DNA of 64,000 nt from Blastocatellia bacterium (GTDB lineage Bacteria > Acidobacteriota > Blastocatellia > UBA7656), in NCBI GenBank assembly GCA_035315885.1, contig DATFXM010000030.1:38619-102618 (forward strand). Direction: 5' to 3'. The stretch's first letter is position 1, and every line of letters begins with the position of its first letter. Shown here one piece after another: positions 8,587-60,528 of the stretch. Under the pieces are notes generated by a model. The model ran no database searches and was not told the origin of the DNA. It saw only the letters and a program-made list of their open reading frames with translations. The translations under genes were made by a program, and so were the position numbers.

Positions 8587-9651
8587 CTAAGTAAGGGTGA
8601 GAAGGTAGCGGACGAGTTGGTCTACCTCTTCGTCCGTGAGCTGCATATCAGGCATGTAGCAGCCTTCTTTTAGCCTCTGTGGATTGCGCACCCATGCACG
8701 CAGCTTTTCAGGCGTGTTCAACACCACGCCAGACCCAAGCGTTTCGCGGTTCATTAAATGAGTCAGATCGGGCCCGAACTTGCCGTTGGCTTCCGTGCCA
8801 TTGATCGTGTGACAGTTGACGCAAGAGGTGGAGAAGAAGAGGTCACGCCCGACCTTCACCTGGACGTCGTTGGCCGCTTGGCGTTTTTGCGCGGCCACCC
8901 ACTGTTCGAACTCGCCCGGTGGATGCACGATGACCCGGATCAGCATCCGGGCATGCTGTGTTCCGCAATACTCGGCGCAATTGCCCAGGTAAGTTCCCGG
9001 TGTCACCGGCTCTATCCACATGAGATTGTCACGGTTTGGAATGACGTCGGTTTTGCCGGCTAGCTGAGGAATCCAAAAGCTGTGCGCCACGTCGGCCGAT
9101 TCCAGCTTCATGAATGTCGGACGCGGCTGAGCCGCATCGCTAACCGGGACATGCAGTTCGTTCGCAGTCACTATGCCTAGTTCGGGATACCGGATCTCCC
9201 ACCACCACTGATGACCGACTATGGTGACTTGGACTGCTTTAGGCGGAGGAGGCGCGTCTTGAACTTCAGCTATGGTGCGTGCGGTCACCAGGGTGAGCAC
9301 AAAGACAATGATGAGCGGCAAGACCGTCCAGGCGAGCTCGATTTGGTTACTGCCATAGACCTGAGGTGGTTCGTGCGTGTCGTCGCCCTTGCGATGACGG
9401 AATCGTGCCACCGTATAAATGAGCAGGGCCATAACCGTGACAAAGATCACCCCGCAGATGGCTAGAACGAGCATCGTGTAGTTGAAGATCACTCTGGCCG
9501 GTGGGCCATCCGGTTTGAAGATGTTGGTCACGCTGTTTGCGCCATCGGCAAATGCAGGTACGACCATCAAGAAGGAGATGAAACATAAGATCAACGACCT
9601 GGTACACATCGCTCGCCACGAACGAATGGCAAATTGGATCTGCTGCTTCAC
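8587..9651 (-). CDS. ctaC: Cytochrome c oxidase subunit II, caa3-type (CuA domain fused to a C-terminal cytochrome c)
   Basis: CuA motif H...CAEYCGTQHARM and C-terminal CVNCH haem-binding motif. Signal peptide plus 2 TM. Confidence 0.85.
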   Translation of the reverse strand: MKQQIQFAIRSWRAMCTRSLILCFISFLMVVPAFADGANSVTNIFKPDGPPARVIFNYTMLVLAICGVIFVTVMALLIYTVARFRHRKGDDTHEPPQVYGSNQIELAWTVLPLIIVFVLTLVTARTIAEVQDAPPPPKAVQVTIVGHQWWWEIRYPELGIVTANELHVPVSDAAQPRPTFMKLESADVAHSFWIPQLAGKTDVIPNRDNLMWIEPVTPGTYLGNCAEYCGTQHARMLIRVIVHPPGEFEQWVAAQKRQAANDVQVKVGRDLFFSTSCVNCHTINGTEANGKFGPDLTHLMNRETLGSGVVLNTPEKLRAWVRNPQRLKEGCYMPDMQLTDEEVDQLVRYLLTLT

Positions 9652-19792: not shown

Positions 19793-20857
19793 TTACAGCA
19801 GAGTGAACTTGAACTCGAGCGAGACGCGCACACTTACCGTATGCCCATCTTTCTGCGCCGGAACGAACCGCAATTCTCGTGCAGCCTCTATAGCCTTCTC
19901 ATCAAGGCCATATCCGAGCCCGCGGGTGACTCTGATGTCCGATATCGTGCCATTGGCGTTCAGTACCGCAGAAAGTTTTACCTGTCCCTCGATCTGGGCG
20001 CGCCGCGCCTCCTCTGTGTACCCAGGAACGGGACGCGATAGCATCTGCGGACGCGTCGTGACGTTACTAATGGTGAAGACGCCGTTGTAGTTTACGTCCG
20101 CATTCGATCCACTGCCGGGTCCTCCAGAAGCCGTGCCGCCACCACTACCGGTAAGGCCGCGGGCTGCACCATCCGATGCTGAAGCCCGGGAGGCGGTCTC
20201 ACTTGTCGGTGAGTTTGAGGTTGGTGTAATTGGTTCCGTAGTTACTGTTTGGTCGGGCGGGCGCGGTGTCGGCTTGGCTTCTGGGAATTCAGCCTTAGGC
20301 TGATCTGTAGATTTGATTGGAGGCGCCAACTGCCCTCTGCCTGTCGTGCCGCCCGCTTCTTTGAGCTGCGGGACGGCTTTTTTGACAGGCACAGGAGGGG
20401 GCGCCAGGAAGGTAATCGCAAGATGCTGCACAGGAGCGGCGTCCGGCGTTACGCGGTGAAAGATACGATACGATACGTAGATCCCGGAAAGTGCTAATGT
20501 GTAGAAAGCAACGGCAACGGTTATGCCGGCACGCAGTTTTTTTCGTTGCGCGTCGAGGCTGGTGCCGCCTTTGGTAGCCGCACTTATGAAAGCAATGGGA
20601 TCTTGGCGCAGGGCCCGCACAGCCTCTGCCAGCTCGCGGGCAAGTCGGACCGCAAAAGGATCGGCGACGTTCGACTTTAGAAACTTTAAATCAGCATAAG
20701 CTCGCTCATTGGCCTCTGCATTCGTTTCAAGGGTCGTTTCAAAGGTCTTGGACGAGGGCGCCGACGGCCGATCTTTGTCCTGCGGGAAAAGGGTGTTAAG
20801 AAAGCCCCCTGCCTTCGGCCGTTTCGGTATTACGTTGATGTTATTCAGGGTTTCCAT
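19793..20857 (-). CDS. tonB: TonB-family energy transducer (N-terminal TM, Pro-rich spacer, TonB C-terminal domain)
   Basis: TM helix (ITVAVAFYTLALSGIYVSY), a Pro/Thr-rich linker (PPPVPVKKAVPQLKEAGGTTGRGQLAPPIKSTDQPKAEFPEAKPTPRPP), and the C-terminal TonB_C signature (VPGYTEEARRAQIEGQVKLSAVLNANGTISDIRVTRGLGYGLDEKAIEAARELRFVPA). Confidence 0.75.
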   Translation of the reverse strand: METLNNINVIPKRPKAGGFLNTLFPQDKDRPSAPSSKTFETTLETNAEANERAYADLKFLKSNVADPFAVRLARELAEAVRALRQDPIAFISAATKGGTSLDAQRKKLRAGITVAVAFYTLALSGIYVSYRIFHRVTPDAAPVQHLAITFLAPPPVPVKKAVPQLKEAGGTTGRGQLAPPIKSTDQPKAEFPEAKPTPRPPDQTVTTEPITPTSNSPTSETASRASASDGAARGLTGSGGGTASGGPGSGSNADVNYNGVFTISNVTTRPQMLSRPVPGYTEEARRAQIEGQVKLSAVLNANGTISDIRVTRGLGYGLDEKAIEAARELRFVPAQKDGHTVSVRVSLEFKFTLL

Positions 20858-32173: not shown

Positions 32174-35100
32174 ATGGAAAGTGCTAGGGGACTAGGACGA
32201 TTCATGCTTGCGCCGGGCCTTGTACTGGCTTGGACGCTGATTGCATCGTGTCCGTCTGCCTTGGCACTGAATCCGGCGTTGGACGTCAGTCAGTACGCGC
32301 ACACGTCGTGGAAGATCGGCGACGGGTTTTTCAAAGGCAGGATCTCGTCCATTGCTCAGACTGCCGACGGCTATCTTTGGCTAAGCACGGACTTCGGCGT
32401 GCTTCGGTTCGACGGCGTTAGATTCGTCCCATGGCAGCCGCCGGGCGATCAGCCCTTGCCGTCGAGCACCGTATTTCACCTGTTAGGCTCGCACGATGGG
32501 ACGCTTTGGATTGGTACCGACAAAGGCCTGGCAAGTTGGAAGGAAGGGAGGCTCACTCGGTACCCCGAGCTGGATGGACAAACTGTGTCTGCGCTCCTGG
32601 AGGATCGCGAAGGCGCGGTTTGGGTCGGCAATTATTCGCTTGAGGTCGCTCCGACTGGAAAACTCTGTGTAATTCAGGATGGTCGCATTCAGTGCTACGG
32701 AGGTGATGGAGCCTTTGGCCGTGGAGTGTTTAATCTCTATGAGGACAAGGGGGGACGTCTCTGGGTTTCCGGGGAGAGCGGAATCTGGCGGTGGAAACCG
32801 GGACCGCCCGAGTTCATTCCAGTGCCCGGTATCAGGCACGGCTCAGGGAATCTCGCTGAAGACCTTGACGGCACCCTGTTGATCACCACGGAGGGCGGAA
32901 TCAAACGACTCGTCGTTGGAAAGGTGGAATCCTATCTTCTTCCAGGTGCAGTGACTCCGTACCAAGTCTTCAGAATATTCCGTGATCGCGATGGGTGCTT
33001 TTGGGTCGGAACCGTGGATCGGGGCATACTGCATGGTCACCAGGGAAGGACAGACGTGTTCTCGAGGTCCGACGGTCTTTCGAGCGAAAGCGCTTCACGC
33101 TTTTTCGAGGATTTTGAAGGCAACATTTGGGTCTGTACGAACACCGGCCTCGATCGATTTCGCGAGTTTGCTGTCCCTAATTTCAGTGTGCGGCAAGGTT
33201 TGTCAGTTGCGACTGTCGCCTCGGTTCTGGCGCTCAGGGATGGGGGCTTGTTGGTCGCCACCTTTGGTGGCTTGAATCGATGGAATAAGGATCAATTCAA
33301 TGTTTACGGCAGCAGCAACGCACGGGGACAGCAAGGCACAAATGTGCCGTACGCTCTCTTTCAAGACGCTCGAGGACGAATCTGGGGCATCGGGCAACAC
33401 GCGTTCGGATATCTGGAGAACGACAGGTTTATTCCTATCAATGGCATTCCGGGCGGAGTTGGTCGTGCCATCGGTGAGGACAATGCTGGCGATCTGTGGA
33501 TTGCTAATCAGAATCTCGGTTTGTTTCATCTGCGCGGGAGCGAGCTGATCGAGAAGCTTCCGTGGGACAAGCTCGGACATCAGGACTTTGCTACGGCCCT
33601 TGCTGCCGATCCTGTGAGAGGGGGGATATGGGTTGGTTTTTTTTACGGTGGCCTGACTTACTTCAAGGACGGTCAGGTCCAGACATCCTATGGAGTCGCG
33701 AATGGATTGGGAGAAGGGCGAGTTAACGACATTCGGCTCGATCGTGACGGTACGCTCTGGGCCACCACCGAAGGTGGACTGAGTCGGTTGAAAGACAACC
33801 GTTTCGCGACTCTTACAAGCAAGAATGGATTGCCGTGCGATACGATTCATTGGCTCATCGAAGACAACGACCATTCGTTATGGCTCGACACGAGGTGCGG
33901 CCTGTTGCGGATCGCGCGAGAGGATTGGGCCGGCTGGGTCGCCGCGGCGGAAACAGGTGACGATACGAAGCTGAAGGTACAGGCGCGGGTTTTCGATAAT
34001 TCGGATGGGGTCAATAGTCTGGCTTATCCGATCGGCCTCAGTCCTCAGGTCGTGAAGACCGCCGATGGCAAACTGTGGTTTCCCGGTTTGGACGGAGTCA
34101 GCGTTGTAGATCCTCGCCACCTTCCATTCAACGATTTGCTGCCGATGGTGCACGTGGAACAGCTAATCGCTAACCACCAGACCTACGATACGACTCTCGA
34201 TGTGGGGCGGGTGCGCCTGCCGTCCTTAATTCGTGATTTGGAGATCGACTATACTGCCCTCAGCCTGGTCGCACCGGAAAAAGTATTCTTCCGCTACAAG
34301 CTGGAAGGCTTTGATCAAGATTGGCAAGACGCGGGCAATCGGCGCCAGGCGTTCTATACGAATCTCCCACCGCGCAGCTACCGCTTCCGAGTGATGGCTT
34401 GCAATAACTGCGGCGTATGGAACGAGGTCGGGACATTTCTGGATTTCTCCATCGCCCCGGCGTACTACCAGACGATCTGGTTTCGTCTGGGGTGTGTGGC
34501 AGCGTTTGTTGTATTGGTCGTAGCGGTTTATAGACTGCGAGTGCGCCAGGTGGCGCAGCGCGTTCAAGGACGTATGGAGGAACGACTCGACGAGCGCGAA
34601 AGGATCGCCCGAGACTTGCACGATACATTGCTTCAGAGCGTGCAGGGATTGATCCTGAAGATTCACGCGGTCGCACAACGAATCCCCGATAAAGCGGCTC
34701 GTGACGGCTTAGAGAAAGCCCTGGATCGAGCAGACGAGGTCCTTGCGGAGGGAAGAGATCGCGTTCGAAACCTTCGGGGCAACACCATACCGTTCGGCGG
34801 CTTGCCTGCGGCATTCCAGCGCGTCGCCGAAGAAACACCGCAGGGCCGCGAAACAACTTTTAAAACGGTGGTTGAAGGGCGGGTGCGGTTGCTGCACCCG
34901 TTGATTCGCGAGGAGACCTTTTCAATTGGGCGAGAGGCGCTGATCAATGCGCTAACGCATTCCAAAGGGCATCACGTTGAAGTGGAGATCATCTACGACG
35001 CGCGACAGTTCCGGGTAAGGATCCGAGACGATGGACGTGGGTTCGATCCGAAGATTCTTGAGGACGGTGGCCGACCTGGTCACTGGGGGCTGCAAGGAAT

Positions 35101-35272
35101 GCAAGAGCGCTCCGACAGGATTGGAGCACAACTGAAGATATGGAGCCGTCCTGAAACCGGAACCGAAATCGAGTTGATAATTCCCGGGAGCACGGCCTAT
35201 CAAACGTCTAGTGCCAACGCTAAGAGTTCCTGGTTTGGTCGTTCTTCCGGCGACGACGGCAAGCAAGAGTGA
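32174..35272 (+). CDS. Sensor histidine kinase with a large periplasmic two-component-regulator beta-propeller/Y_Y_Y domain, HisKA_3 and HATPase_c
   Basis: 1032 aa. Signal peptide, ~700-aa propeller region, TM (IWFRLGCVAAFVVLVVAVY), HisKA_3 H-box (ERERIARDLHDTLLQ), and an ATPase domain (RDDGRGFDP...GHWGLQGMQERS). Confidence 0.8.
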   Translation: MESARGLGRFMLAPGLVLAWTLIASCPSALALNPALDVSQYAHTSWKIGDGFFKGRISSIAQTADGYLWLSTDFGVLRFDGVRFVPWQPPGDQPLPSSTVFHLLGSHDGTLWIGTDKGLASWKEGRLTRYPELDGQTVSALLEDREGAVWVGNYSLEVAPTGKLCVIQDGRIQCYGGDGAFGRGVFNLYEDKGGRLWVSGESGIWRWKPGPPEFIPVPGIRHGSGNLAEDLDGTLLITTEGGIKRLVVGKVESYLLPGAVTPYQVFRIFRDRDGCFWVGTVDRGILHGHQGRTDVFSRSDGLSSESASRFFEDFEGNIWVCTNTGLDRFREFAVPNFSVRQGLSVATVASVLALRDGGLLVATFGGLNRWNKDQFNVYGSSNARGQQGTNVPYALFQDARGRIWGIGQHAFGYLENDRFIPINGIPGGVGRAIGEDNAGDLWIANQNLGLFHLRGSELIEKLPWDKLGHQDFATALAADPVRGGIWVGFFYGGLTYFKDGQVQTSYGVANGLGEGRVNDIRLDRDGTLWATTEGGLSRLKDNRFATLTSKNGLPCDTIHWLIEDNDHSLWLDTRCGLLRIAREDWAGWVAAAETGDDTKLKVQARVFDNSDGVNSLAYPIGLSPQVVKTADGKLWFPGLDGVSVVDPRHLPFNDLLPMVHVEQLIANHQTYDTTLDVGRVRLPSLIRDLEIDYTALSLVAPEKVFFRYKLEGFDQDWQDAGNRRQAFYTNLPPRSYRFRVMACNNCGVWNEVGTFLDFSIAPAYYQTIWFRLGCVAAFVVLVVAVYRLRVRQVAQRVQGRMEERLDERERIARDLHDTLLQSVQGLILKIHAVAQRIPDKAARDGLEKALDRADEVLAEGRDRVRNLRGNTIPFGGLPAAFQRVAEETPQGRETTFKTVVEGRVRLLHPLIREETFSIGREALINALTHSKGHHVEVEIIYDARQFRVRIRDDGRGFDPKILEDGGRPGHWGLQGMQERSDRIGAQLKIWSRPETGTEIELIIPGSTAYQTSSANAKSSWFGRSSGDDGKQE

Positions 35273-35293: not shown

Positions 35294-38200
35294 GTGAGCC
35301 GCATGGCGAACGTAGAGAGACGAGGAAGATTTCTTTTCGGGCCGAGCATTCTGGGCTGGATGCTCCTTGGCTGGATGCTGCTTGCGTCGTCTCCTCCCGC
35401 ATTCGCCTTGAATCCGGCGTTGGACGTCAGTCAATACGCTCACACCTCGTGGAAGAACCGCGAAGGTTTTTCCAAAGGACGGATTGACGCCATTGCTCAA
35501 ACGCGCGATGGCTATCTCTGGCTGGGTACGGAGTTCGGGCTGCTTCGCTTCGACGGCGTCAGGGTCGTCCGATGGGAACCGCCAGCCGATCAGCACCTGC
35601 CGTCGAGCGTGATTATCAACCTGCTCGCCGGCAGCGATGGGAGCCTTTGGATTGGCACCGATAAAGGTTTGGCAAGTTTGAAGGACGGGAGGGTGACACT
35701 GTACTCCCAGGTTGGCGAGGAATTTGTGTTTGCGCTCCTTGAGGATCGTGACGGCGCGGTCTGGGTTGGTAGTTATTCGTTCGATGCCGTTCTGAAGAAA
35801 AATCTCTTTGTAATTCACAATGGCAGCATCGAGAGCCTGGGAGAGGGCCGATCTGTTGGCGCTGGAGTGTTGAATTTGTATGAGGACAAGAGGGGATTTA
35901 TCTGGGCCTCTGGCTCGGGTGGAATTTGGCGATTGAAGCCGGGTCCACCTGAATTCTTTCAAGTGCCCGGTTTTGTGCCCGGCAAACAGATTCTTGCTGA
36001 AGACTTTGACGGCGCTCTCCTGATTGGCACAGAGGTCGGAATCAAACGGCTCATCGATGGGAAAATACAGGCTTATGTTCTCCCAGATTTTGCGCAGCCG
36101 TTGCGAGCCCTAACAGTGTTTCGAGATCGGGATGGCGGTCTGTGGATTGGAACCCCTAACCGAGGGATCACACATGTACACCAGGGGAGAACAGATGTAT
36201 TTGCCGCATCCGACGGGCTTTCGAGCGACTTTGTCTCATCCTTTTTCGAGGATTCTGAAGGCAACATCTGGGTGGCCACCTTAAACGGTCTCGACCGCTT
36301 TCGCGAGTTTGCCGTCCCCGCGTTTACCCGAAAGCAGGGTCTATCATCATATGAAGACCTCTCATCCGTCCTGGTGGTCAGGGATGGAAGCCTGTTGGTC
36401 GCGGCAGGCGATGGCTTGAATCGATGGAACAACGGGCAATTTACTGCCGTTGGGGCTGGCACCAGACGCCTGGATGTGCCGAGGTCGCTTTTTCAAGATT
36501 CTCACGGGCGAATCTGGGCGGTCAGCATAGACCAGTTCGGCTACCTTGAGAATGATCGGTTTATTGCCATCACCGGCATTCCGGCTGGAGTTGTGCGTGG
36601 CATTGTTGAGGACGCTGCCGGCGATCTGTGGATTGCTAACCAGAATCTCGGATTGTTTCATCTGCGTGGGAGCCAGATCATCGAACAGATTCCGTGGATT
36701 AAGTTTGGACATAGAGACTTTGCCGCGTCGCTTGCCTTTGATCCGGTGCGAGGCGGAGTATGGATTGGATTCTTCAAAGGTGGCCTCACTTATTTCAAGG
36801 ACGGCAGCGTTCAGTCGTCGTATAGCACCGATAATGGGCTCGGTAAAGGACTGGTTAACGATCTACGGGTCGATTCTGATGGTGCGCTATTTGTCGCCAC
36901 CGAGGGCGGACTGAGCCGGCTGAAAAACAACCACTTCGCCACACTCACAAACAGTAATGGATTACCCTGCGATACGATTCATTGGCTCATCGAAGACGAC
37001 GACCATTCCTTATGGCTTAACACAACGTGCGGTTTGGTGCGCATCACGCGCGTCGAGTGGGATCGTTGGGCCGCCGCGGCGGACACCGGCGAGGATACGA
37101 AGGTCAAGGTACAGGCCACCGTTTTCGACATGTCCGACGGGGTTAGCAGTCGCTCCTATCCTATCGGATTTGTCCCTCAGGTCGCCAAGTCCAAGGATGG
37201 CAAACTGTGGTTTCCTAGTTACGACGGAGTCAGCGTCGTAGATCCGCGCCATCTTCCATTCAACAACCTCCTGCCGCTAGTGCATGTGGAACAGCTAATC
37301 GCCAACCACCAGACCTACGATACGACTCTCGATGTCGGACGAGTGCGACTGCCGTCCCTAATTCGCGATTTGGAGATCGACTATACTGCCCTCAGCCTGG
37401 TCGCACCGGAAAAAGTATTCTTCCGTTATAAGCTGGAAGGCTTCGATCAAGATTGGCAAGACGCGGGCAGTCGGCGCCAGGCGTTCTATACGAATCTCCC
37501 ACCGCGCAGCTACCGCTTCCGAGTGATGGCCTGCAATAATTGCGGCGTATGGAACGAGGTCGGGACATTTCTGGATTTTTCCATCGCCCCGGCGTACTAC
37601 CAGACCATCTGGTTTCGTTTGGCGTGTGTGGCTGCGTTCCTTGTCATGCTCGCAGCAGTTTATAAGCTCCGCGTGCGTCAGGTCGCGCGGACCGTTCAAG
37701 GACGCATGGAGGGGCGGCTCGACGAACGGGAGAGGATCGCCCGAGACTTGCACGACACGTTGCTTCAGAGTGTGCAGGGATTGATCCTGAAGATTCATGC
37801 GATCGCGAAACGAACTCGCGATGAAGGGTCTCGTGACGACTTAGAGAAAGCCCTCGATCGAGCAGACGAGGTTCTTGCGGAGGGAAGAGATCGCGTCCGG
37901 AGTCTGCGCGGCGCTATGGATTCGCTCTGCGACTTACCGGCAGCATTCAAGCGGGTCGCGGAGGACAACCAACCGTCACGCAGAGTGACCTTTAAGACCG
38001 TCGTAGAAGGCAGCTCGCGAGAGCTGCACCCTCTCGTTCTTGAAGAATCTTTTTGCATCGGACGTGAAGCAGTAATTAATGCTCTTACACATTCAAAGGG
38101 GCATCACGTCGAAGTAGAGATCACGTACGAACCCAAACAGTTTCGCTTGCGGGTGCGCGACGATGGCCATGGCTTCGACCCAAAGATTCTCGAAGATGGC

Positions 38201-38404
38201 GGCCGCCCTGGTCACTGGGGGTTGCAAGGTATGCGAGAACGCTCCGACAGGATAGGTGCACAATTGAAGATATGGAGCGGCTATGAAACCGGAACCGAGA
38301 TTGAGCTGATAGTCCCGGGAGCCGCGGCTTATAGCGCGGTGAGTGCCGGGCCGAGGAATTCCTTGTTCCGCAGATCTTCCGGCAGCAATGGTGATCCACG
38401 ATGA
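35294..38404 (+). CDS. Sensor histidine kinase, tandem paralog of 32174..35272 (beta-propeller/Y_Y_Y + HisKA_3 + HATPase_c)
   Basis: 1036 aa, same architecture. The C-terminal ~330 nt (37260-37620) is ~95% identical at nucleotide level to 34140-34500. The 4-nt overlap with the downstream response-regulator gene indicates an operon. Confidence 0.8.
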   Translation: MSRMANVERRGRFLFGPSILGWMLLGWMLLASSPPAFALNPALDVSQYAHTSWKNREGFSKGRIDAIAQTRDGYLWLGTEFGLLRFDGVRVVRWEPPADQHLPSSVIINLLAGSDGSLWIGTDKGLASLKDGRVTLYSQVGEEFVFALLEDRDGAVWVGSYSFDAVLKKNLFVIHNGSIESLGEGRSVGAGVLNLYEDKRGFIWASGSGGIWRLKPGPPEFFQVPGFVPGKQILAEDFDGALLIGTEVGIKRLIDGKIQAYVLPDFAQPLRALTVFRDRDGGLWIGTPNRGITHVHQGRTDVFAASDGLSSDFVSSFFEDSEGNIWVATLNGLDRFREFAVPAFTRKQGLSSYEDLSSVLVVRDGSLLVAAGDGLNRWNNGQFTAVGAGTRRLDVPRSLFQDSHGRIWAVSIDQFGYLENDRFIAITGIPAGVVRGIVEDAAGDLWIANQNLGLFHLRGSQIIEQIPWIKFGHRDFAASLAFDPVRGGVWIGFFKGGLTYFKDGSVQSSYSTDNGLGKGLVNDLRVDSDGALFVATEGGLSRLKNNHFATLTNSNGLPCDTIHWLIEDDDHSLWLNTTCGLVRITRVEWDRWAAAADTGEDTKVKVQATVFDMSDGVSSRSYPIGFVPQVAKSKDGKLWFPSYDGVSVVDPRHLPFNNLLPLVHVEQLIANHQTYDTTLDVGRVRLPSLIRDLEIDYTALSLVAPEKVFFRYKLEGFDQDWQDAGSRRQAFYTNLPPRSYRFRVMACNNCGVWNEVGTFLDFSIAPAYYQTIWFRLACVAAFLVMLAAVYKLRVRQVARTVQGRMEGRLDERERIARDLHDTLLQSVQGLILKIHAIAKRTRDEGSRDDLEKALDRADEVLAEGRDRVRSLRGAMDSLCDLPAAFKRVAEDNQPSRRVTFKTVVEGSSRELHPLVLEESFCIGREAVINALTHSKGHHVEVEITYEPKQFRLRVRDDGHGFDPKILEDGGRPGHWGLQGMRERSDRIGAQLKIWSGYETGTEIELIVPGAAAYSAVSAGPRNSLFRRSSGSNGDPR

Positions 38405-39030
38405 CCGACAAAAATACCATTAGAATTCTCACCGTAGATGACCACCCCTTGTTGCGAGAAGGAATCGCCGCCGTCCTCTCGAGCGAGGTGGATATGGCAC
38501 TGATCGCCGAAGCCAGCACTGGAATGGAGGCCATCGAGCAATTCCGTACTCATCGGCCAGATATAACTCTGATGGACTTGCAGTTGCCACTATTGAACGG
38601 CATCGAGGCAATTGTGGCCATTCGGAAGGAGTTTCCGGACGCGCGCATCATCGTCCTGACCACCTACGCCGGTGACGCACAGGCGGTCCGCGCATTCAAC
38701 GCCGGGGCTTCTGGATACCTGCTGAAGAACATGCTCCGCAAGGAACTGGTGGAGACCATTCGAAGCGTGCATTGCGGCAAGAAACGCATTCCTCCCGAAA
38801 TCGCGGTTGAAATGGCCGAACACCACGCCGACGATTCATTGACCGAACGCGAAATCGACGTCCTGCGAGAAGTGGCCGCCGGCAACGCAAACAAGATAGC
38901 CGCCGACCACCTCGGCATTTCAGAAGAGACCGTAAAAGCTCACATGAAGAGCATTCTCTCAAAACTCGGCGCCAACGATCGTACTCACGCGGTCACCATA
39001 GCGTTGAAGCGGGGAATAATTGAGATCTAG
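38401..39030 (+). CDS. NarL/FixJ (LuxR-type) response regulator
   Basis: REC domain (LTVDDHPLLREG...DITLMDLQLP) plus LuxR HTH (SLTEREIDVLREVAAGNANKIAADHLGISEETVKAHMKSIL). Confidence 0.85.
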   Translation: MTDKNTIRILTVDDHPLLREGIAAVLSSEVDMALIAEASTGMEAIEQFRTHRPDITLMDLQLPLLNGIEAIVAIRKEFPDARIIVLTTYAGDAQAVRAFNAGASGYLLKNMLRKELVETIRSVHCGKKRIPPEIAVEMAEHHADDSLTEREIDVLREVAAGNANKIAADHLGISEETVKAHMKSILSKLGANDRTHAVTIALKRGIIEI

Positions 39031-41436: not shown

Positions 41437-41441
41437 TTCAA

Positions 41442-41640
41442 AGGAGCGAAGGGGCGACTCCGAGGACGCGGGGAGGAGAGACACGGGGACACGGGGACGC
41501 CCGTAAGCAAGGTCATCGAATGGCGAAAGGTTAGGTTCGTAGAGAGGGTTGTCCCCGCATCTGCGCATTTTCCGCATACACGCATCCGTCCCCGCGTCTC
41601 TCCGCTCCGCCTCGCCCCTTTGCCCCTTCGCCCCTTGGCG
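41442..41640. repeat. Long imperfect inverted repeat with ~55-nt arms (41446-41500 vs 41582-41640), rich in GGGGA/CCCCG tracts, between convergent genes
   Basis: The left arm ...GCGAAGGGGCGA...GAGAGACACGGGGACACGGGGACGC pairs with the right arm GCATCCGTCCCCGCGTCTCTC...TCGCCCCTTTGCCCCTTCGCC. The loop contains three CCGCAT repeats. Confidence 0.4.
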
Positions 41641-45220: not shown

Positions 45221-45364
45221 TACTCATACCACCTTTCATGACCCAATTCGATCGCCAAGAAGAAACGTTACGGGGCTTTATTCGCGCCCGCAGAACCGAT
45301 CAGCTTCGGTATAGGATAAGGCCCGAATCTCCAAAATGGTAGTACGCACCTTGTGGTTACTATC

Positions 45365-45490
45365 GGTTTAGGGTTTAGGGTTTCGGGTTTAGGGTTCGTC
45401 GGATCTAGACGCGTTTGGCGAGCGATGCTTGAGTATCGATGAGACTGATTGAACGAGCCCTAAACTCTAAACCCGAAACCCTAAACCCGC
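45365..45490. repeat. G-rich heptamer repeat element, copy 1. GGGTTTA/GGGTTTC array plus conserved core GGGTTCGTCGGAT..AGAC, arranged as inverted arms.
   Basis: Left arm GGTTTAGGGTTTAGGGTTTCGGGTTTAGGGTTCGTC. The right arm is its reverse complement (GAACGAGCCCTAAACTCTAAACCCGAAACCCTAAACCCGC). Same family as 60322-60491. Confidence 0.5.
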
Positions 45491-45583
45491 TGTGCGCACT
45501 GCCACAATTATGGATGGCTTGATGACCCTCGGCTTCGGTAGTTATATTGGCTTGTCGTACTGCACTCAAGGCTGAGGCTTCAG

Positions 45584-46816
45584 GTGGCGCAGAGAGAGGA
45601 CACACTGGGAGTCTTTCGCGTTTCTCAGTCCAATGATTGGCGCGAACTGAGCTCGGTTCATCGACGATGCTTGTTGGAACCGGGATCGAGTGCACCACGA
45701 GTGCCGAGCCCGGTACCACGAGTTGAGCTGAATCTTCAGAAGTCCGTTCCGAACAAGCTCATCTGCATATTTATTGTTATCGCGGCTGGCTTTTGCGTCC
45801 TGATCAACGGCTGCAGCGCGACGCACGTCGGTGTCGTGCCCTCGATCGAATTCACCAGGATCCCTCCCGCAGAGATCAATCGTGCGGAAAAGTTCGACAT
45901 TATCCAGGGCCGGGTAACTGGGGCGCGCCCCGGCCAGCAAGTGGTCTTGTACGTAAAGACCGGAGACTGGTGGGTACAGCCGTCTTTCCATCAACCCTTC
46001 ACAAAGATTCTGGCTGACTCTACCTGGCTGAATTCAACTCACCTCGGGTCGCACTATGCTGCCGTCCTCGTAGATCCCGAATATCATCCCCAATCAACCA
46101 TGGATACTCTGCCGGATATTGGTGGTGGCGTCGCGGCAGTAGCGGTTGCGGAGGGCGCAACATCCGGCCCAACCACCGCTGCAAACCTGCAGTTCGGCGG
46201 ATATGATTGGAGGGTGAGGAATGCTCCGAGCAGCCGCGGAGATACTCCAAACATTTATGATCCCTCAAACGCCTGGATCGATGCGGAAGGAGCGCTCCAT
46301 CTTCGGATAGCAAAGCAAGGCGATCAGTGGACGTGTGCAGAAGTGACCCTCACCCGCAGTCTTGGATATGGCACTTATTCATTCGTAGTGCGCGATACGT
46401 CGCAGTTGGAGCCCGCTTCAGTTTTTTCGATGTATACCTGGGACTACTCCGGCGGCGATCAGAATAATCGTGAGATGGATATCGAGATAAGCCGTTGGGG
46501 TGATCCGGCAGCGGTGAACGCCCAATGTGAGGTTCAGCCCTTTTATGTTCCGGCGAATGTCGCTCGATTCGACGCACCGGCCGGCGTGCTGACACACAGT
46601 TTTCGTTGGGAGCCCGGGAAGGTTGTCTTCAGAACCCTGCGAGGATCGGTCAACGATTCTCACGCTGAAGTAGTAAATGAGCACGCCTTTACGTCCGGAG
46701 TGCCGCTTCCCGCCTCCGAAACGGTTCGCATAGCGTTCTACGTCTACGGAAAGATATATAATCCGGCGCAAAATGATATTGAAGTTGTTGTTGAGAAGTT
46801 TGAATACCTTCCTTGA
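45584..46816 (+). CDS. Predicted lipoprotein with a novel ~105-aa N-terminal domain and a C-terminal GH16-like (concanavalin-type glucanase) domain. Start uncertain.
   Basis: Lipobox-like (...AAGFCVLINGC). C-terminal region has the ExDxE motif NREMDIEISRWG, typical of GH16 catalytic strands. The N-domain is homologous to the N-terminus of 50124..51425. Confidence 0.5.
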   Translation: MAQREDTLGVFRVSQSNDWRELSSVHRRCLLEPGSSAPRVPSPVPRVELNLQKSVPNKLICIFIVIAAGFCVLINGCSATHVGVVPSIEFTRIPPAEINRAEKFDIIQGRVTGARPGQQVVLYVKTGDWWVQPSFHQPFTKILADSTWLNSTHLGSHYAAVLVDPEYHPQSTMDTLPDIGGGVAAVAVAEGATSGPTTAANLQFGGYDWRVRNAPSSRGDTPNIYDPSNAWIDAEGALHLRIAKQGDQWTCAEVTLTRSLGYGTYSFVVRDTSQLEPASVFSMYTWDYSGGDQNNREMDIEISRWGDPAAVNAQCEVQPFYVPANVARFDAPAGVLTHSFRWEPGKVVFRTLRGSVNDSHAEVVNEHAFTSGVPLPASETVRIAFYVYGKIYNPAQNDIEVVVEKFEYLP

Positions 46817-49800
46817 TGGTGGTCGAAGACATCGCCGGTCATTCGGATGGTTTTGGCTGGTGTTGATGTCGGCGTGTCTGGCACCCAACGCTCACGCGTT
46901 GGATCCATCACGGCCAATCTCTGAGTATGCGCGCGAAAGCTGGGATATTGAGACGCGATTTCCCGGCGGACCAGTGCATGGCATCGCCCAGACTCCGGAT
47001 GGATACCTATGGATCGCCGCGGAAAAGGGGTTGGTCCGCTTCGATGGATTGAACTTCCGCCTGTTTAACCAGGCAAACTCACCTGGTTTTCCTGACGGGC
47101 CGGTCTTGGATGTGATGGCCGACTGGGAAGGAAACCTGTGGATCCGGCCGCAGAGCCGGAACATGCTGCGTTATCGCGATGGAGTATTTCACGATGTCAT
47201 GCCTGACCTGGACAGGACGCGTCTTGGGATATCGGCGATGTGTATGGGACCAAAGGGCGAGGTTCTTTTAGCCGTGCGCAGTACCGGCATATTCACCTGG
47301 AAGGATCAACGATTCGAGAAGGTGTTATCTACGGAAGACCGCTCTAATTTCCTGGTCATCTCGATGGCGAAAGCCCGCGACAACAAGGTCTGGATTGGCA
47401 CTCGAGACAACGGTCTTTTTACCGCCAGCGGAGGACAGATTTCCGCGGTTAGAAATGGATTACCTGACAGAAAGGTCAACAGCCTCCTGTCGGTGAATGA
47501 GCGTGAGTTGTGGGTCGGGACCGACAATGGAATCGTCCGGTGGAATGGTGAAGAGTTGACCGCGGTAGCCGATCAGGCGCTGGACCGCGTGCAGGTGTTA
47601 GCAATGACCAGGGATCGCGATTCGAATCTCTGGATTGGGACGTCGAAGGGGCTGTTGCGCCTGAATGCGAGTGGAGCGACTTCCGACGAGGAGGAGGCGA
47701 ACGAGTCTTCGGCAGCCGGAGTGAACGGAGGAGTGAACGCCGTCTTTGAAGATCGCGAAGGAAATCTTTGGGTCGGAAGCAATCGAGGCCTCGAGCGACT
47801 TCGCGACATCGCCTTCACCACACACTATGTTTCCAGGGACCTTCCCCAGCGCGCCTACGGCGCCTTCTACCTCGATGCAGGCGGTTTGACCTGGTTCGCT
47901 CCCTCGGATGGCGGGTTGTACTGGCGGCGAGGCACGCAAAGCGGACAAGTGAAAGAGGCGGGACTTGACCGCGACGTAATCTATTCAATGGCAGGCGGCA
48001 AGGGCGAGCTGTGGGTAGGCCGCCAGCGCGGTGGACTCACGCACTTAAGGTACGACGGCAGTTCATTCAAGGCGGAAACTTACACGGAAGCGCAAGGGCT
48101 TGCACGGGGCGCCATCTATGCGGTTCTTGAAACGCGCGATCGAACTGTGTGGGCTGGAAGTTGGATGGGAGGTGTCACCAGGATAAGGGACGGAAAACTC
48201 ACGACCTACACCGCAGCGAACGGCCTTGCGTCTGACACCGTCACATCCATTCTTGAAAGTGCGGCTGGAACGATGTGGTTTGGCACGTCTAACGGGTTGA
48301 GCTCGCTCTCGCAGGATGGCTGGCGGACCTACCGAGGCGTCGATGGCTTACCACCCGGCGTTGTGTACTGCTTACTCGAAGACTCCGGGCACGCGATATG
48401 GATTGGTACCGCCAACGGGATTGCGGTTCTTCTTTCCGGTCAGATCCGGGCTGTTCGCGAGGCTCCCAGCTCGTTGAACCAACCGATAAGGGGAATTGCT
48501 GAGGACCGGGCGGGAATGCTGTGGATCTCGACTGCGAATCGAGTTGTACGCGTCGACGGCGACAAATTGCTGCGCGGACCGGCTGGTGAACCGGTGGTTC
48601 GAGAGTTCGGACTCGCCGACGGACTCCGCAGCGTGGAGGGGATGAAGCGAAGCAAGTCGATAGTCATGGATTCGCTCGGGCGAATCTGGGTTTCCACATA
48701 TGCCGGGCTTTCGGTCGTCGACCCTCTTAGAGTTTCGGATGAGACAATTCCCGTGATAGTCCGGGTGGAGGGGCTCGCAGCCGATGGTAGACCCGTTGCT
48801 CTCAAGGATACCGTTCGCATTCCGGGTGGTCGTCAAAGGATCACACTCAGCTTCGCTGGTCTGAGTCTCTCGGTACCGGAGCGCATCAGGTTCAGATACC
48901 GATTGGATGACTTCGATCAGGATTGGAGCGACGTGGTCTCGGCACGAGAGGCTGTCTATACAAATCTAGGACCCGGAACTTACCGTTTCCGCGTCTTGGG
49001 GAGCAACAGCGACGGGGTCTGGAACAGATTCGAATCGACGATCCTGTTCGAGATTGAACCGGTATTCTGGCAGACCTGGTGGTTTCGTTCGCTCACGCTG
49101 ATTGCGGGTGGGCTGATGGCCCTGGTGATTTACCGAGCGAGGCTGCGTCGTGTGACCGGACAACTGAATGTGCGATTCGAAGAGCGGCTGGCCGAGCGCA
49201 CGCGCATCGCTCAGGACCTGCACGACACGCTGTTACAAGGATTTCTCAGCGCATCAATGCAGCTCGACGTGGCCGCGGACCAGCTACCCTCGGATTCTCC
49301 TGCCAAGCCTCTCGTCGCCCGCGTGCTTCAACTGATGAGACATGTTATCGACGAGGGACGCACCGCGCTCAAAGGCCTGCGCTCTTCTGACTATGGTCCT
49401 AAAGATCTGGCGCAATCATTCTCTGACGTTCAATATGAGCTCGCCGTTCCCGATAACGTAGATTATCGCGTCACTGTGCGAGGGACCTCCCGCCCATTGC
49501 ACCCGATCATCCGCGATGAGGTATATCGTATCGGCAGGGAAGCGCTGGTGAATGCGTTCCGTCACTCGCGGGCGAACACCATAGAGATGGAAATCGAATT
49601 TGGAGCGCAATTCCTGCGACTGCATGTTCGCGACAACGGCACGGGCATCGATACTCATGTACTTCGCGACGGGCGCGACGGACACTGGGGTCTCAAGGGA
49701 ATGCGAGAGCGAGCAGTGGTAATCGGTGCCACACTCAAGCTGCGGAGCCGCGCGGGCACGGGCACGGAAGTTGAGGTTGTCATTCCGAACCAGATTGCCT

Positions 49801-49892
49801 TTGAATCGTTGACCCAGCTTCCCTGGTGGGGCCGGCTCCCTAAGGTGCCCTGGGGAAAACCCCGACAGAAGTTGAAGGGCCGAAAGAACTAG
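46773..49892 (+). CDS. Sensor histidine kinase with a periplasmic beta-propeller/Y_Y_Y domain (third paralog), HisKA_3 + HATPase_c
   Basis: 1039 aa. Signal (FGWFWLVLMSACLAPNAHA), propeller repeats, TM (WWFRSLTLIAGGLMALVIY), H-box ERTRIAQDLHDTLLQ, and ATPase region (RDNGTGID...GHWGLKGMRERA). Confidence 0.8.
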   Translation: MILKLLLRSLNTFLDGGRRHRRSFGWFWLVLMSACLAPNAHALDPSRPISEYARESWDIETRFPGGPVHGIAQTPDGYLWIAAEKGLVRFDGLNFRLFNQANSPGFPDGPVLDVMADWEGNLWIRPQSRNMLRYRDGVFHDVMPDLDRTRLGISAMCMGPKGEVLLAVRSTGIFTWKDQRFEKVLSTEDRSNFLVISMAKARDNKVWIGTRDNGLFTASGGQISAVRNGLPDRKVNSLLSVNERELWVGTDNGIVRWNGEELTAVADQALDRVQVLAMTRDRDSNLWIGTSKGLLRLNASGATSDEEEANESSAAGVNGGVNAVFEDREGNLWVGSNRGLERLRDIAFTTHYVSRDLPQRAYGAFYLDAGGLTWFAPSDGGLYWRRGTQSGQVKEAGLDRDVIYSMAGGKGELWVGRQRGGLTHLRYDGSSFKAETYTEAQGLARGAIYAVLETRDRTVWAGSWMGGVTRIRDGKLTTYTAANGLASDTVTSILESAAGTMWFGTSNGLSSLSQDGWRTYRGVDGLPPGVVYCLLEDSGHAIWIGTANGIAVLLSGQIRAVREAPSSLNQPIRGIAEDRAGMLWISTANRVVRVDGDKLLRGPAGEPVVREFGLADGLRSVEGMKRSKSIVMDSLGRIWVSTYAGLSVVDPLRVSDETIPVIVRVEGLAADGRPVALKDTVRIPGGRQRITLSFAGLSLSVPERIRFRYRLDDFDQDWSDVVSAREAVYTNLGPGTYRFRVLGSNSDGVWNRFESTILFEIEPVFWQTWWFRSLTLIAGGLMALVIYRARLRRVTGQLNVRFEERLAERTRIAQDLHDTLLQGFLSASMQLDVAADQLPSDSPAKPLVARVLQLMRHVIDEGRTALKGLRSSDYGPKDLAQSFSDVQYELAVPDNVDYRVTVRGTSRPLHPIIRDEVYRIGREALVNAFRHSRANTIEMEIEFGAQFLRLHVRDNGTGIDTHVLRDGRDGHWGLKGMRERAVVIGATLKLRSRAGTGTEVEVVIPNQIAFESLTQLPWWGRLPKVPWGKPRQKLKGRKN

Positions 49893-50123: not shown

Positions 50124-51425
50124 TTGCCTGGCAGCCAGAACGAGGAGCGCGAGGAATCGGGCTTCCTCCGCGAAGACAAGAGATTGAAACCACGATTTGA
50201 AAACCCTGTCGCAATCCCAACACTGGCATTCGCCTTTTTACTTCTCACTCTTTGTTTTGTAGTTGGCGGTTGTCGCGCCCGGAAAGTGGACGGCGGACCC
50301 GTTGTCGAGTTCACAAAAGTGCCTCTAGCTGAAGAAGGCGGGCCAGACAAACTTGATGTGATCGAAGGCCGCGTTAGAGAAGCTCGCCCGGACCAGAAGA
50401 TCGTCTTGTTTGCTAAAAGCGGGACATGGTACGTCCAACCGTTCGCGGACCAACAATTCACAGCTATTCAAGCCGATTCAAAGTGGAAGAGCGTTACGCA
50501 CCTAGGCACTGAGTATGCCGCACTGCTCGTCGAGCCGGGCTATCAACCTCCAAATGTAACCGATACCCTGCCGACTGCAGGTGGAGCAGTGGTAGCCGTA
50601 GCCATCAGGAAAGGTGAGCCGGTGTACTGGCTGAGATGGTGGTTCCTGGTCTTATGCGCTCTGGCCCTCCTGTCCACGTTTCTTGCGTTCAACAACTACA
50701 AGCTGCACTTAGTGACCCGACAACTGAATCTGCGCTTCGAAGAACGCCTGGCCGAGCGGACCCAAATCGCGCAGCAACTCCACGACACGCTGTTGCAGGG
50801 TGTTATCAGCGCCTCAATGCAGCTACACATGGCAGTTGATCAACTGCCGACCGACTTGCCGGCGAAGCCTTCTCTAACTCGAGTTCTTCATGTAATGGAG
50901 CAGGTCCTTGAGGAAGGACGGTATGCGCTTCAGAGCCTCCGCCCGGGTCCCAACAGCGTCTGTCTCGATGTCGAGCAGACGTTCCGCACGATCCAACAAG
51001 AGTTCAACGACGATGCGATTGACTTTCGCGTCATTGTTGAAGGCCGACCCCGCCCCGTACACCCGATCATACGCGATGAGGTGTACCGTATCGGACGCGA
51101 ACTGCTTGTCAGCGCATTTCGCGCCGAGCGCGTGAGGAGCATAATAGTCGACGTGAAATACAGGGCCAGGTACTTGTGTATTGCCTTCCTCATCGATGGC
51201 GGACGTGATAACAATCAAACGCGAGCGCCGGAAGGCGACGGTCAATGGCCGGTTTCAGAGATGCGCGAGGGCGCCGACAGAATCGGCGGGCGTTTGAGAG
51301 TCAAACATGGCGCACGAACTGAGGTCGAATTGTTGGTTCCGGGCTATATCGCTTTCCAAAGTCAATCTGCAAGGAACGCCTTGAGCTGGCTCGCTCGTTT
51401 TCGTCCGCAAGGGTGGGACCGGTGA
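50124..51425 (+). CDS. Short sensor histidine kinase: lipoprotein-type signal, novel ~105-aa periplasmic domain, TM, HisKA_3, and a divergent/degenerate HATPase_c
   Basis: The periplasmic domain is ~55% identical to the N-domain of 45584..46816. The H-box ERTQIAQQLHDTLLQ region is nucleotide-similar to 49140-49260. In the ATPase G-boxes, IDGGRD replaces DNGTGI and the GxGL box is absent. Confidence 0.6.
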   Translation: MPGSQNEEREESGFLREDKRLKPRFENPVAIPTLAFAFLLLTLCFVVGGCRARKVDGGPVVEFTKVPLAEEGGPDKLDVIEGRVREARPDQKIVLFAKSGTWYVQPFADQQFTAIQADSKWKSVTHLGTEYAALLVEPGYQPPNVTDTLPTAGGAVVAVAIRKGEPVYWLRWWFLVLCALALLSTFLAFNNYKLHLVTRQLNLRFEERLAERTQIAQQLHDTLLQGVISASMQLHMAVDQLPTDLPAKPSLTRVLHVMEQVLEEGRYALQSLRPGPNSVCLDVEQTFRTIQQEFNDDAIDFRVIVEGRPRPVHPIIRDEVYRIGRELLVSAFRAERVRSIIVDVKYRARYLCIAFLIDGGRDNNQTRAPEGDGQWPVSEMREGADRIGGRLRVKHGARTEVELLVPGYIAFQSQSARNALSWLARFRPQGWDR

Positions 51426-51454
51426 AGGAAGAAACCGACAAAGGAGGTGGACAA

Positions 51455-52084
51455 ATGAGCAATCAAGCTTCAATCCGCGTCTTCAGCGTTGATGATCATC
51501 CTCTCCTGCGCGAAGGACTCGCTGCAATTGTCAACAATCAGCCCGATATGGAGCTAGTCGCTCACGCGTCCACCGGTCGCGAGGCCATTCAAGCCTTCAA
51601 GCAACACCAACCCGATATCACGCTGCTTGACCTCCGGCTGCCCGATATGAGCGGCATCGATGCTTTGATCGCGATTCGAGCCGAATTCCCTGAGGCCCGT
51701 ATCATTATGCTTACGACGTTCGAGGGCGATGTCGATATCAGCCGTGCTCTGGCGGCAGGAGCCCGCGGATATATGCTGAAAAACATGCCGCCCAAGGAGC
51801 TCGTAGAGGCGATACGCCAGGTTCATTCGGGGAAGAGGCGCATCCCTCCGCAGGTCGCATCGCACCTCGCCGAGTTTTTCGGAGGCGATTCCCTCACCGA
51901 GCGTGAGATAGAGGTCCTGCGGCACATCGCCGAGGGAAACCGCAATCGAGACATTGCCGAACGCCTCTTTATCTCGGAGGAGACCGTCAAGGTGCACATC
52001 AAACACATCATGGAAAAGCTAGGCGCCACCGATCGCACGCAGGCGGTCGCGATCGGCCTGCGGCGCGGAATTATTAAATTGTGA
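51455..52084 (+). CDS. NarL/FixJ (LuxR-type) response regulator, paralog of 38401..39030
   Basis: AAAGGAGGTG lies upstream of ATG 51455. REC domain (VFSVDDHPLLREG...DITLLDLRLPDMSG) plus LuxR HTH. Confidence 0.85.
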   Translation: MSNQASIRVFSVDDHPLLREGLAAIVNNQPDMELVAHASTGREAIQAFKQHQPDITLLDLRLPDMSGIDALIAIRAEFPEARIIMLTTFEGDVDISRALAAGARGYMLKNMPPKELVEAIRQVHSGKRRIPPQVASHLAEFFGGDSLTEREIEVLRHIAEGNRNRDIAERLFISEETVKVHIKHIMEKLGATDRTQAVAIGLRRGIIKL

Positions 52085-59910: not shown

Positions 59911-60249
59911 TCATTCCGGAACGTGCTTATCGAGGATTTTCGATATGGACTCTTGTGCGCTCAGCGGGAGACCAATGATGCGCTCGACTTCCGCGCCGTC
60001 GCGGAAAAGGATCAGCGTCGGAATGCCCCTCACGCCGTAGTTGGAAGGGCTTGAGTTGTTCTCATCTACGTTTAGTTTGACCACTTTGGCTTTGCCCTGA
60101 TACTTCTGGGCAATTGCTTCGACGGCCGGCGCAATCGCTCGACAAGGCGCGCACCAGGCTGCCCAAAAATCCACCAGCACCGGCTGGGATGACTTCAACA
60201 CCTCAAGCTCGAACTCCTCATCCTTAACTTCCCTTACCAGTTGGCTCAT
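59911..60249 (-). CDS. trxA: Thioredoxin
   Basis: WCAPC active site within a thioredoxin fold (VLVDFWAAWCAPCRAIAP...GIPTLILF). Confidence 0.8.
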   Translation of the reverse strand: MSQLVREVKDEEFELEVLKSSQPVLVDFWAAWCAPCRAIAPAVEAIAQKYQGKAKVVKLNVDENNSSPSNYGVRGIPTLILFRDGAEVERIIGLPLSAQESISKILDKHVPE

Positions 60250-60321
60250 CGATCCCTCCTTTTCATATTACGCTCGTAATATGATGATCATACGATAACC
60301 TGTCAAGATCAGTTCCGTGTG

Positions 60322-60491
60322 GCGGTTTGGGGTTTAGGGTTTAGGGTTCGTCAGATAGAGACTCGAATGGCAGGATCGGGTTTCGGGTTTAGGGTTTCGG
60401 GTCTCGGGTTCGTCAGATTAAGACTCGAATGGCGGGTAGTGCTCGACGAAAGATTACTGAATCAAAACGAACCCGAAACCCGAAACCGAGC
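60322..60491. repeat. G-rich heptamer repeat element, copy 2: two tandem units of GGGTTTAGGG/GGGTTTCGGG arrays plus core GGGTTCGTCAGATNNAGACTCGAATGGC, with an inverted C-rich arm
   Basis: Unit A is 60330-60375 and unit B is 60378-60437. The right arm AACGAACCCGAAACCCGAAACCGAGC (60467-60491) is the reverse complement of the GGGTTTCGGG motif. Confidence 0.5.
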
Positions 60492-60516
60492 AAGGGCGAC
60501 CACGAGAGTCGCCCTT
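60492..60516 (-). terminator. Stem-loop immediately 3' of the 60529..63477 gene (AAGGGCGAC-N7-GTCGCCCTT)
   Basis: Perfect 9-bp GC-rich stem. On the minus strand it is followed by a T-containing tract (CTCGGTTTCGGGTTTCGGGTTCGTTTTG). Confidence 0.4.
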
Positions 60517-60528
60517 GTTGAATCTACG

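Follow-up and report, generated by a model that had tools for sequence, protein, structure and literature searches.

The window, by which we mean the whole 64,000-nucleotide stretch of DNA analysed here, carries ordinary chromosomal genes, among them a cytochrome oxidase cluster, efflux systems, sigma-54 activators and three large Reg_prop/Y_Y_Y histidine kinases. The kinases (32174-35272, 35294-38404 and 46773-49892) are paralogues of ~1035 aa, two of them adjacent, with Reg_prop beta-propeller repeats and Y_Y_Y, HisKA_3 and HATPase_c domains; genes for LuxR-type response regulators (38401-39030 and 51413-52084) lie near them. A 982-aa YncE-like protein is encoded beside the second of the two repeat loci described below, and its nearest relatives (73-87% identity) are from the Blastocatellia and the Pyrinomonadaceae. 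Transposase domains, including Y1_Tnp, were not identified in the 44 window ORFs that were scanned.

The two repeat loci are both intergenic. Copy 1 (45365-45489, plus strand) is flanked by divergent genes; a promoter-like site (TTGATG-18-TATATT, 45519..45548, plus strand) that precedes the ORF at 45584-46816 follows ~30 nt downstream. Copy 2 (60322-60488, plus strand) has the terminator hairpin of the 982-aa gene on one side and a promoter-like site for trxA on the other. The terminator is a 10-bp GC hairpin on the minus strand (60491..60517), directly past the stop codon (60529) of the 982-aa gene and 3 nt from the end of copy 2, and the promoter-like site (TTGACA-17-CATATT, 60278..60306, minus strand) is upstream of trxA (59911-60249) and 16 nt from the left end of copy 2. 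An earlier reading made from the sequence alone (the sequence-only reading) had put copy 1 in a divergent promoter region and copy 2 between a terminator and the trxA promoter, and this placement is correct. Orthologues of the 982-aa gene at L123, L124 and L128-L131 have a GC hairpin and a T-run 3' of the gene; at L125 and in the window there is a hairpin and no T-run. In the window an arm of the element (GGTTTCGGGTTTCGGG on the minus strand) starts at the place where the T-run is expected.

Read directly, copies 1 and 2 each consist of an array of GGGTTT(A/C) heptamers, then a conserved core, then a complementary C-rich array, which is the arrangement that the sequence-only reading had described. 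A two-heptamer pattern (GGGTTTMGGGTTT, at most 1 mismatch) has 14 matches in the window against 0.10 expected, all of them inside the two copies, and TRF applied to the whole window found no period-7 array of more than 2.3 units outside these loci. The core, GGGTTCGTCRGATnnAGACnCGnnTGGC, occurs three times in the window, each time on the plus strand.

The arms of copy 1 (45365-45399 and 45453-45487) are 35 nt each, 89% complementary and spaced by 53 nt. The 5' arm (45365..45399, plus strand) is made of 4.6 tandem GGTTTAG/GGTTTCG units leading into GGGTTCGT, and the 3' arm (45453..45489, plus strand), which pairs with it, of 4.4 CCCTAAA/CCCGAAA units. The conserved core (45392..45460, plus strand; nhmmer E 1.8e-14) has the inner inverted ends GGGTTCGTCGGAT and ...ATTGAACGAGCCC and has diverged further than any other core in the family; the middle of the copy is the string GGGTTCGTCGGATCTAGACGCGTTTGGC plus ~40 more non-repetitive bases.

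Copy 2 had been described as two tandem units. Two units are indeed present, but the first, 2a (60322..60375, plus strand), is a left half, and only the second, 2b (60376-60488, plus strand), is complete. The half unit has a 3.6-unit 5' arm and the first ~30 nt of the core; it covers profile positions 1-30 only, breaks off at the core's apical loop and is without a 3' half. In the full unit, a 5' arm of 5 units (60376..60413, plus strand), one of them a GGGTCTC variant, is followed by the core (60406..60474, plus strand; nhmmer E 9e-20) and a 3' arm of 2.6 AACCCGA units (60467..60488, plus strand). Its paired arms (60393-60413 and 60467-60487) are 21 nt each, 95% complementary and again 53 nt apart. 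The 3' arm of 2b is shorter than the 5' arm of the same unit and is closer in length to the 5' arm of 2a. The general unit is thus 2-6 GGGTTT(A/C) heptamers on the 5' side, a ~53-nt core and complementary heptamers on the 3' side. The ~53-nt core is itself an imperfect palindrome, with inner ends GGGTTCGTCAGAT and ATCAAACGAACCC.

A scan of metagenomes with a query of 22 specified core bases, with no heptamer in the pattern, returned nine contigs, which correspond to the window's two loci (base for base) and seven further sites with unrelated flanks. A GGGTTT(A/C) array lies 5' of the core at all seven new sites, and its complement lies 3' at all except L113, where the contig stops within the core. 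An alternative contig, L136, adds one more left junction, which brings the family to 11 units that share a core, at 10 distinct left junctions. The repeat family that had been proposed is therefore not confined to the two sites in the window. Mean column identity over the eight complete cores is 87%. The cores of L113 and L117 are alike at all but 1 of 65 positions and have unrelated flanks, and the length of the arrays and the order of A-type and C-type units vary even where cores are near-identical. Every known copy is intergenic. All come from a few soil metagenome samples that also have near-identical copies of the window's two loci, and all are possibly from one population.

Beyond these samples the family was not encountered. 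A scan of 596 Gb of genome collections with GGTTCGTCRGATNNAGAC, a pattern that proved too loose, gave 110 loci, all attributable to chance and none carrying the element. Among them only L098 has a two-unit heptamer match, single and isolated, and the slightly longer nhmmer matches at L007 and L067 fall in coding sequence. Viral contigs (by pattern scan) and plasmids (by blastn) hold no copy of the family.

Could the repeats have been created in assembly, as an artefact or a chimera at a low-complexity repeat? Some short-read contigs (L121, L122 and L134) do terminate within the arrays, and L136 joins another left flank to the copy at L119. However, when contigs encoding exactly the window's proteins were looked up, both loci turned up in three JGI samples, one ENA assembly and Logan assemblies. 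Copies 1 and 2 are base-for-base identical in the contigs of the three JGI samples, and the contigs from ENA and Logan show no difference in the flanks and in the parts of the arms that they span. Since these independent assemblies agree, the element is no assembly artefact, a possibility that the sequence-only reading had itself raised, and we consider this explanation extremely improbable.

The two arrangements at L136 and L119 merit a separate description. The right part of the element and the adjoining PPIase gene are identical between L136:5344-5644 and L119:600-900 (also in L138 and L139). The arrangements diverge to the left of TCAGATAGAGAC, where L136 has another 5' arm and another left flank. 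In L136 a FabH-like gene enters the 5' arm, and its TAG stop lies inside a TTTAGGG unit. The L119 arrangement is backed by three other assemblies; either the element has been a site of recombination or the Logan contig L136 is chimeric.

The claim that the copies fold as long hairpins is borne out for the complete units. As RNA, copy 1 folds at -66.7 kcal/mol on the plus strand (z -8.4 relative to shuffled sequence) and at -51.2 kcal/mol on the minus strand (z -6.8); as DNA its two strands fold at -34.4 (z -7.1) and -30.5 kcal/mol. The complete unit 2b, as DNA, folds far better than shuffled sequence. The half unit 2a is the exception and has no fold of its own (DNA -1.2 kcal/mol, z 0.2). An intrinsic terminator was considered and rejected: there is no T-run after the 3' arms, which are followed by GCTGTGCG and GAGCAAGG, and no terminator-like site at either copy.

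Potential for G-quadruplex (G4) formation had been proposed as a trait of the family, and this did not hold. Ten units have 2, 2, 2, 3, 3, 4, 4, 4, 5 and 6 chained G3 tracts, so that only half have the four or more required by the motif (G3N1-7)3G3, and there is no preference for four heptamer units. When G4 energies were allowed in a thermodynamic model, the hairpin was the minimum-energy fold in every complete copy; a 5' arm modelled alone can form a G4. The identity with the plant telomere heptamer, to which the sequence-only reading had also drawn attention, is coincidental and concerns the A-type unit: the arrays freely interleave it with C-type units, and relatives of the host use other heptamers.

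A multi-copy gene for a structured small RNA, with the core displayed on a long stem and transcribed from the G-rich strand, would account for the much stronger conservation of the core relative to the arms. As a consensus, the core also folds better on the plus strand (-19.7 versus -12.9 kcal/mol), and 13 cells in the predicted plus-strand helices vary by G-U only. This G-U bias is lost in the arms (10 versus 8), however, where most mismatches are an A-type unit opposite a C-type unit. The core alignment has no compensatory double changes, and its measures of pairing and covariation are no better than those of shuffles. Given these three results, selection at the RNA level is unsupported. Rfam has no match in the window, with only miRNA-like hairpin noise far under gathering scores at E values up to 10; no promoter-like site was found within or directly ahead of the unit at copies 1 and 2; and copy 1 has a different predicted inner fold. 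We thus think a small RNA gene rather improbable. A protein encoded by the open frame through the core (GFRVRQIETRMA...) was likewise set aside: it has no match at E <= 1 in a set of 5.8 billion proteins, and since copy 1 has a stop in this frame the frame is non-coding.

There is no target-site duplication, and no direct repeats were found at the ends of the element. The flanks just beyond the arms are mutually inverted at L112, L114, L118 and L119, and weakly so at copy 1. The outer inverted repeat at L114 consists of GATGAGG heptamers, and that at L119 is ~30 nt long. At copy 1 the weak outer repeat has its left half at 45337..45349 (TGGTAGTACGCAC, plus strand) and its right half at 45494..45506 (GCGCACTGCCACA, plus strand), and the predicted fold pairs these flanks; TGGTAGTACGCAC and the reverse complement of the right half (TGTGGCAGTGCGC) agree at ~11 of 13 positions with an offset of 2 nt. 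As the flanks are inverted repeats, more than half of the sites have the element at the precise centre of another palindrome.

The outer palindromes around the element also have their G-rich arm 5'. In all, each of the 13 inverted repeats examined has its G-rich arm 5' and its C-rich arm 3' (sign test ~1e-4, one-sided). In a palindrome this order holds on both strands, and a transcript from either strand therefore has equal polarity. The window has a third long G-first hairpin at 41437-41640, between the convergent DUF4760 and ECF sigma/DUF6596 genes, with GACACGGG 8-mers in its 5' arm and TCGCCCCT 8-mers in its 3' arm (DNA -52.5 kcal/mol, z -3.4). Its candidacy as a homologue of the GGGTTTM core was rejected, the alignment score being inside the shuffle range.

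The nhmmer core profile found no copy of the element in ~155 kb that surrounds orthologues in relatives with 79-86% protein identity. The inverted heptamer pairs of these relatives use other units: GGGGATT nested around GTTCAGC at L124 (L124:5407-5604), CAGTGGC and AGTGATG at L129 (L129:833-941 and 8591-8690), AGTGACA and GGGGCCG at L130 (L130:365-471 and 20635-20704), and TGAGTGC at L131 (L131:1049-1267). There are 11 period-7 arrays per 100 kb and five inverted pairs in these 155 kb, compared with 1.3 arrays per 100 kb and no inverted pair in a control of 834 kb from 110 unrelated genomes. Taken together, the Blastocatellia arrays found here are mostly in inverted pairs (about a dozen), often nested, and few are unpaired (e.g., L115:1655-1678 and L130:21233-21263). 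Judged by eye, the centres of the other heptamer hairpins have no common motif.

One of these hairpins has an orthologous site from which it is absent. At L129 (8520-8712), a ~100-nt AGTGATG/CACTCAT hairpin separates a conserved -10 box from the start codon of the gene downstream, and at the orthologous site in L130 (13010-13118) and L131 (12985-13067) the promoter and start codon are kept without the hairpin. The empty site in L130 holds CACTCAA, a near-match to the repeated unit of L129, which hints that the array at L129 grew in place.

Several further features of these repeats were seen in passing. Many of the units that lack GGG share AGTG (AGTGATG, AGTGACA, AGTGGCC, AGTGCTG and AGTGAAT; there is also AGTAGGC). 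Units of this type occur at L113:1157-1172 and L115:1655-1678, 1820-1845 and 21-44, and in L129, L130 and L131. The unit ACTCAGC is present both in the element-bearing contig L115 and in L131, from a relative at 79%. Clusters of small GC-rich stem-loops with a REP-like look (GGCTCCGTAGGAGCC, CCCCGTAGGGG, GCCCCTCCGGGGC and GCGGCCTTCCGCCGC) are found at L131:1076-1243, in the centre of a heptamer hairpin, and at L140:9580-10005, upstream of the PPIase gene.

A filled and an empty site of this kind, with a near-match unit in an orthologous 5'UTR, would be expected if each repeat were a G4-forming simple-sequence repeat born in place, with the G4 as the functional form, as proposed for Xanthomonas GGGAATC and Nostoc GGGGAYT. 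Dispersed intergenic G3N4 arrays, often in inverted pairs, match the description of those repeats (PMC4692102), and five units of the present family satisfy the G4 motif. Against this, half of the units have fewer than four G3 tracts, four units are not preferred, and the C-rich arm outcompetes the G4 in complete copies. Moreover, a common non-repetitive core of ~53 nt at 10 unrelated sites cannot originate independently in place. Thus, the unit is a copied element and not merely a simple-sequence repeat, and we consider birth in place at each site highly unlikely.

The gene context of nine sites bears on whether the host makes use of the element. Four or five of the sites are between divergent genes, three are between tandem genes and one (L112) is between convergent genes, with the core in mixed orientation relative to the flanking genes. 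A cis-acting DNA or RNA element domesticated by the host and kept by selection, whose long hairpin, cruciform or G-rich arm served as a transcription barrier, insulator, terminator or stabiliser of mRNA 3' ends as proposed for REP/BIME, would fit the location of both window copies between transcription units and that of the L112 copy. It would also fit the other heptamer hairpins of the relatives, which mostly follow gene 3' ends, and the G-first order of the hairpins, hence the same transcript polarity from either strand. However, a terminator has no role in the divergent promoter regions, and the mixed orientation, the lack of a T-run after the 3' arm and the unconstrained arm length also argue against such a function. 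In addition, relatives have canonical terminators at the orthologous place without the element. Selection for a host function of this kind is, in our view, unlikely.

No orthologous empty site was found for the element itself. For copy 2, gene order near the 982-aa gene is not kept at 79-86% identity, and exact-protein look-ups with the 448-aa gene and trxA returned only element-bearing contigs. For the copy at L119, the upstream region of L140 is unrelated. Neither a transposase nor a full-length autonomous element is present in the gene tables and Pfam lists of the fetched loci.

We favour, with slightly better than even confidence, a non-autonomous repeat as the explanation of both loci: a dispersed palindromic DNA unit, confined to a single Blastocatellia lineage. 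An enzyme from another part of the genome would copy the unit, folded as a single strand, into new sites; a RAYT/IS200-type tyrosine transposase would be the obvious candidate, and the tips or the foot of hairpins may be the preferred targets. After insertion, the arms would lengthen and shorten by slipped-strand mispairing; variation in arm length and unit order between near-identical cores is what is expected if arrays slip in this way. Recombination between copies could produce half units such as 2a and perhaps rearrangements such as L136 versus L119. Copy 2 may have formed when one unit inserted in the tip of another, followed by a presumed deletion between both right halves. Insertion of a unit in a tip fits the observation that 2a ends at the apical loop, where 2b starts, and that the 3' arm after 2b fits the 5' arm of 2a in length better than that of 2b. 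Effects on neighbouring genes, if any, would be a by-product.

Several points weigh against a mobile repeat. Neither a transposase, nor a full-length autonomous element, nor an empty site was found in the DNA covered, and all copies come from a few soil samples. The pattern of conservation, with the centre kept and the ends variable, is the reverse of that of a REPIN or MITE, and the nesting within outer palindromes could also stem from the building of palindromes in place. In the latter case, a general process in the Blastocatellia would build palindromes from tandem heptamers, and the GGGTTTM/core element would be its mobile or templating product. The G-first polarity would result if a hairpin tip broke, repeats were added at each of the two 3' ends and the break was then closed. 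Such a process would account for G-first arrays, for layers centred in older hairpins and for the presence or absence of hairpins at orthologous sites. We regard it as distinctly improbable.

The sequence-only reading had called the element REP/MITE-like. That much stands insofar as it is copied, palindromic, extragenic and without target-site duplication; it does not fit the structural definitions of REP and MITE. Like MITEs, the element is small, non-coding, dispersed and intergenic, with inverted ends, but unlike them it has neither a target-site duplication nor a fixed terminal inverted repeat, since its ends are GGTTT...AAACC and its arm length is variable; the loci covered also yielded no insertion sequence related to it. 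REPINs are hairpin-forming doublets that show no target-site duplication and are mobilised as single strands by RAYT (PMC3116915), and the RAYT-like transposases of Acidobacteria form a group of their own, with long inverted repeats on either side (PMC3733652). The element resembles REPINs in being extragenic, hairpin-forming, ~100 nt long and species-specific, in lacking a target-site duplication and in leaving singletons and half units as remnants. Most copies also have a CGTC tetranucleotide at the junction of arm and core (GGGTTCGTCAG), as in a REP tag, although it does not end a short stem-loop. REPINs have conserved ends and a variable spacer, whereas the element has a conserved centre (87%) and heptamer ends that vary in number. 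It is not built of the 20-40 nt palindromes of REP, and neither half of the core folds in a REP-like manner.

The finding adds the Acidobacteriota, a major soil phylum, to the lineages with heptamer arrays. Arrays that flank a common core are an added form of such repeats, in which the copying of a unit can be separated from the local growth of arrays, two processes that are usually confounded. The G-first polarity, the nesting at hairpin centres and the filled and empty orthologous pair are concrete handles on the origin of the repeats. If palindromes are indeed built in place, the lineage could offer a handle on what creates STRR, GGGAATC and TAACTGA arrays in bacteria. In practical terms, these repeats break short-read assemblies of Blastocatellia genomes. 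They can, moreover, provide genes with stop codons and disrupt DNA close to promoters, and annotators should therefore mask them.

Earlier reports of heptamer arrays, which concern cyanobacteria, Xanthomonas, Beggiatoaceae and Bacteroidetes, give no mechanism (PMC4692102; PMC4679880), and our literature search found no description of such repeats in Acidobacteriota. In Xanthomonas and Nostoc, G-rich heptamer arrays (GGGAATC and GGGGA(C/T)T, respectively) are dispersed and mostly intergenic (Rehm et al., 2015; PMC4692102). Xanthomonas GGGAATC has 70-75 convergent inverted pairs able to form stem-loops, and the arrays of both fold into G4 in vitro, with no function known for them (PMC4692102). 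The tandem G-rich heptamers of the element are similarly dispersed, intergenic, variable in number and arranged in inverted pairs, and the relative at L124 uses GGGGATT, which is a Nostoc unit. The differences are that the element has a common non-repetitive core of ~53 nt between its arrays, that its host belongs to the Acidobacteriota and that it lacks the four-unit preference of the described repeats. Divergent promoter regions, which account for several of its sites, are under-represented among those in Xanthomonas.

STRR arrays form the two arms of an extended helix in the RNase P RNA of Nostoc. TAACTGA heptamer repeats are direct repeats located just upstream of start codons (MacGregor, 2015; PMC4679880). 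As with the cyanobacterial STRR and TAACTGA repeats, intergenic tandem heptamers occur lineage-wide in the Blastocatellia, with several types per lineage (PMC4679880). Unlike those, the Blastocatellia arrays are from a different phylum, use different units and are mostly inverted pairs, always with the G-rich arm 5' and often nested. On the best reading, the element is an acidobacterial counterpart of the cyanobacterial STRR and Xanthomonas GGGAATC repeats.
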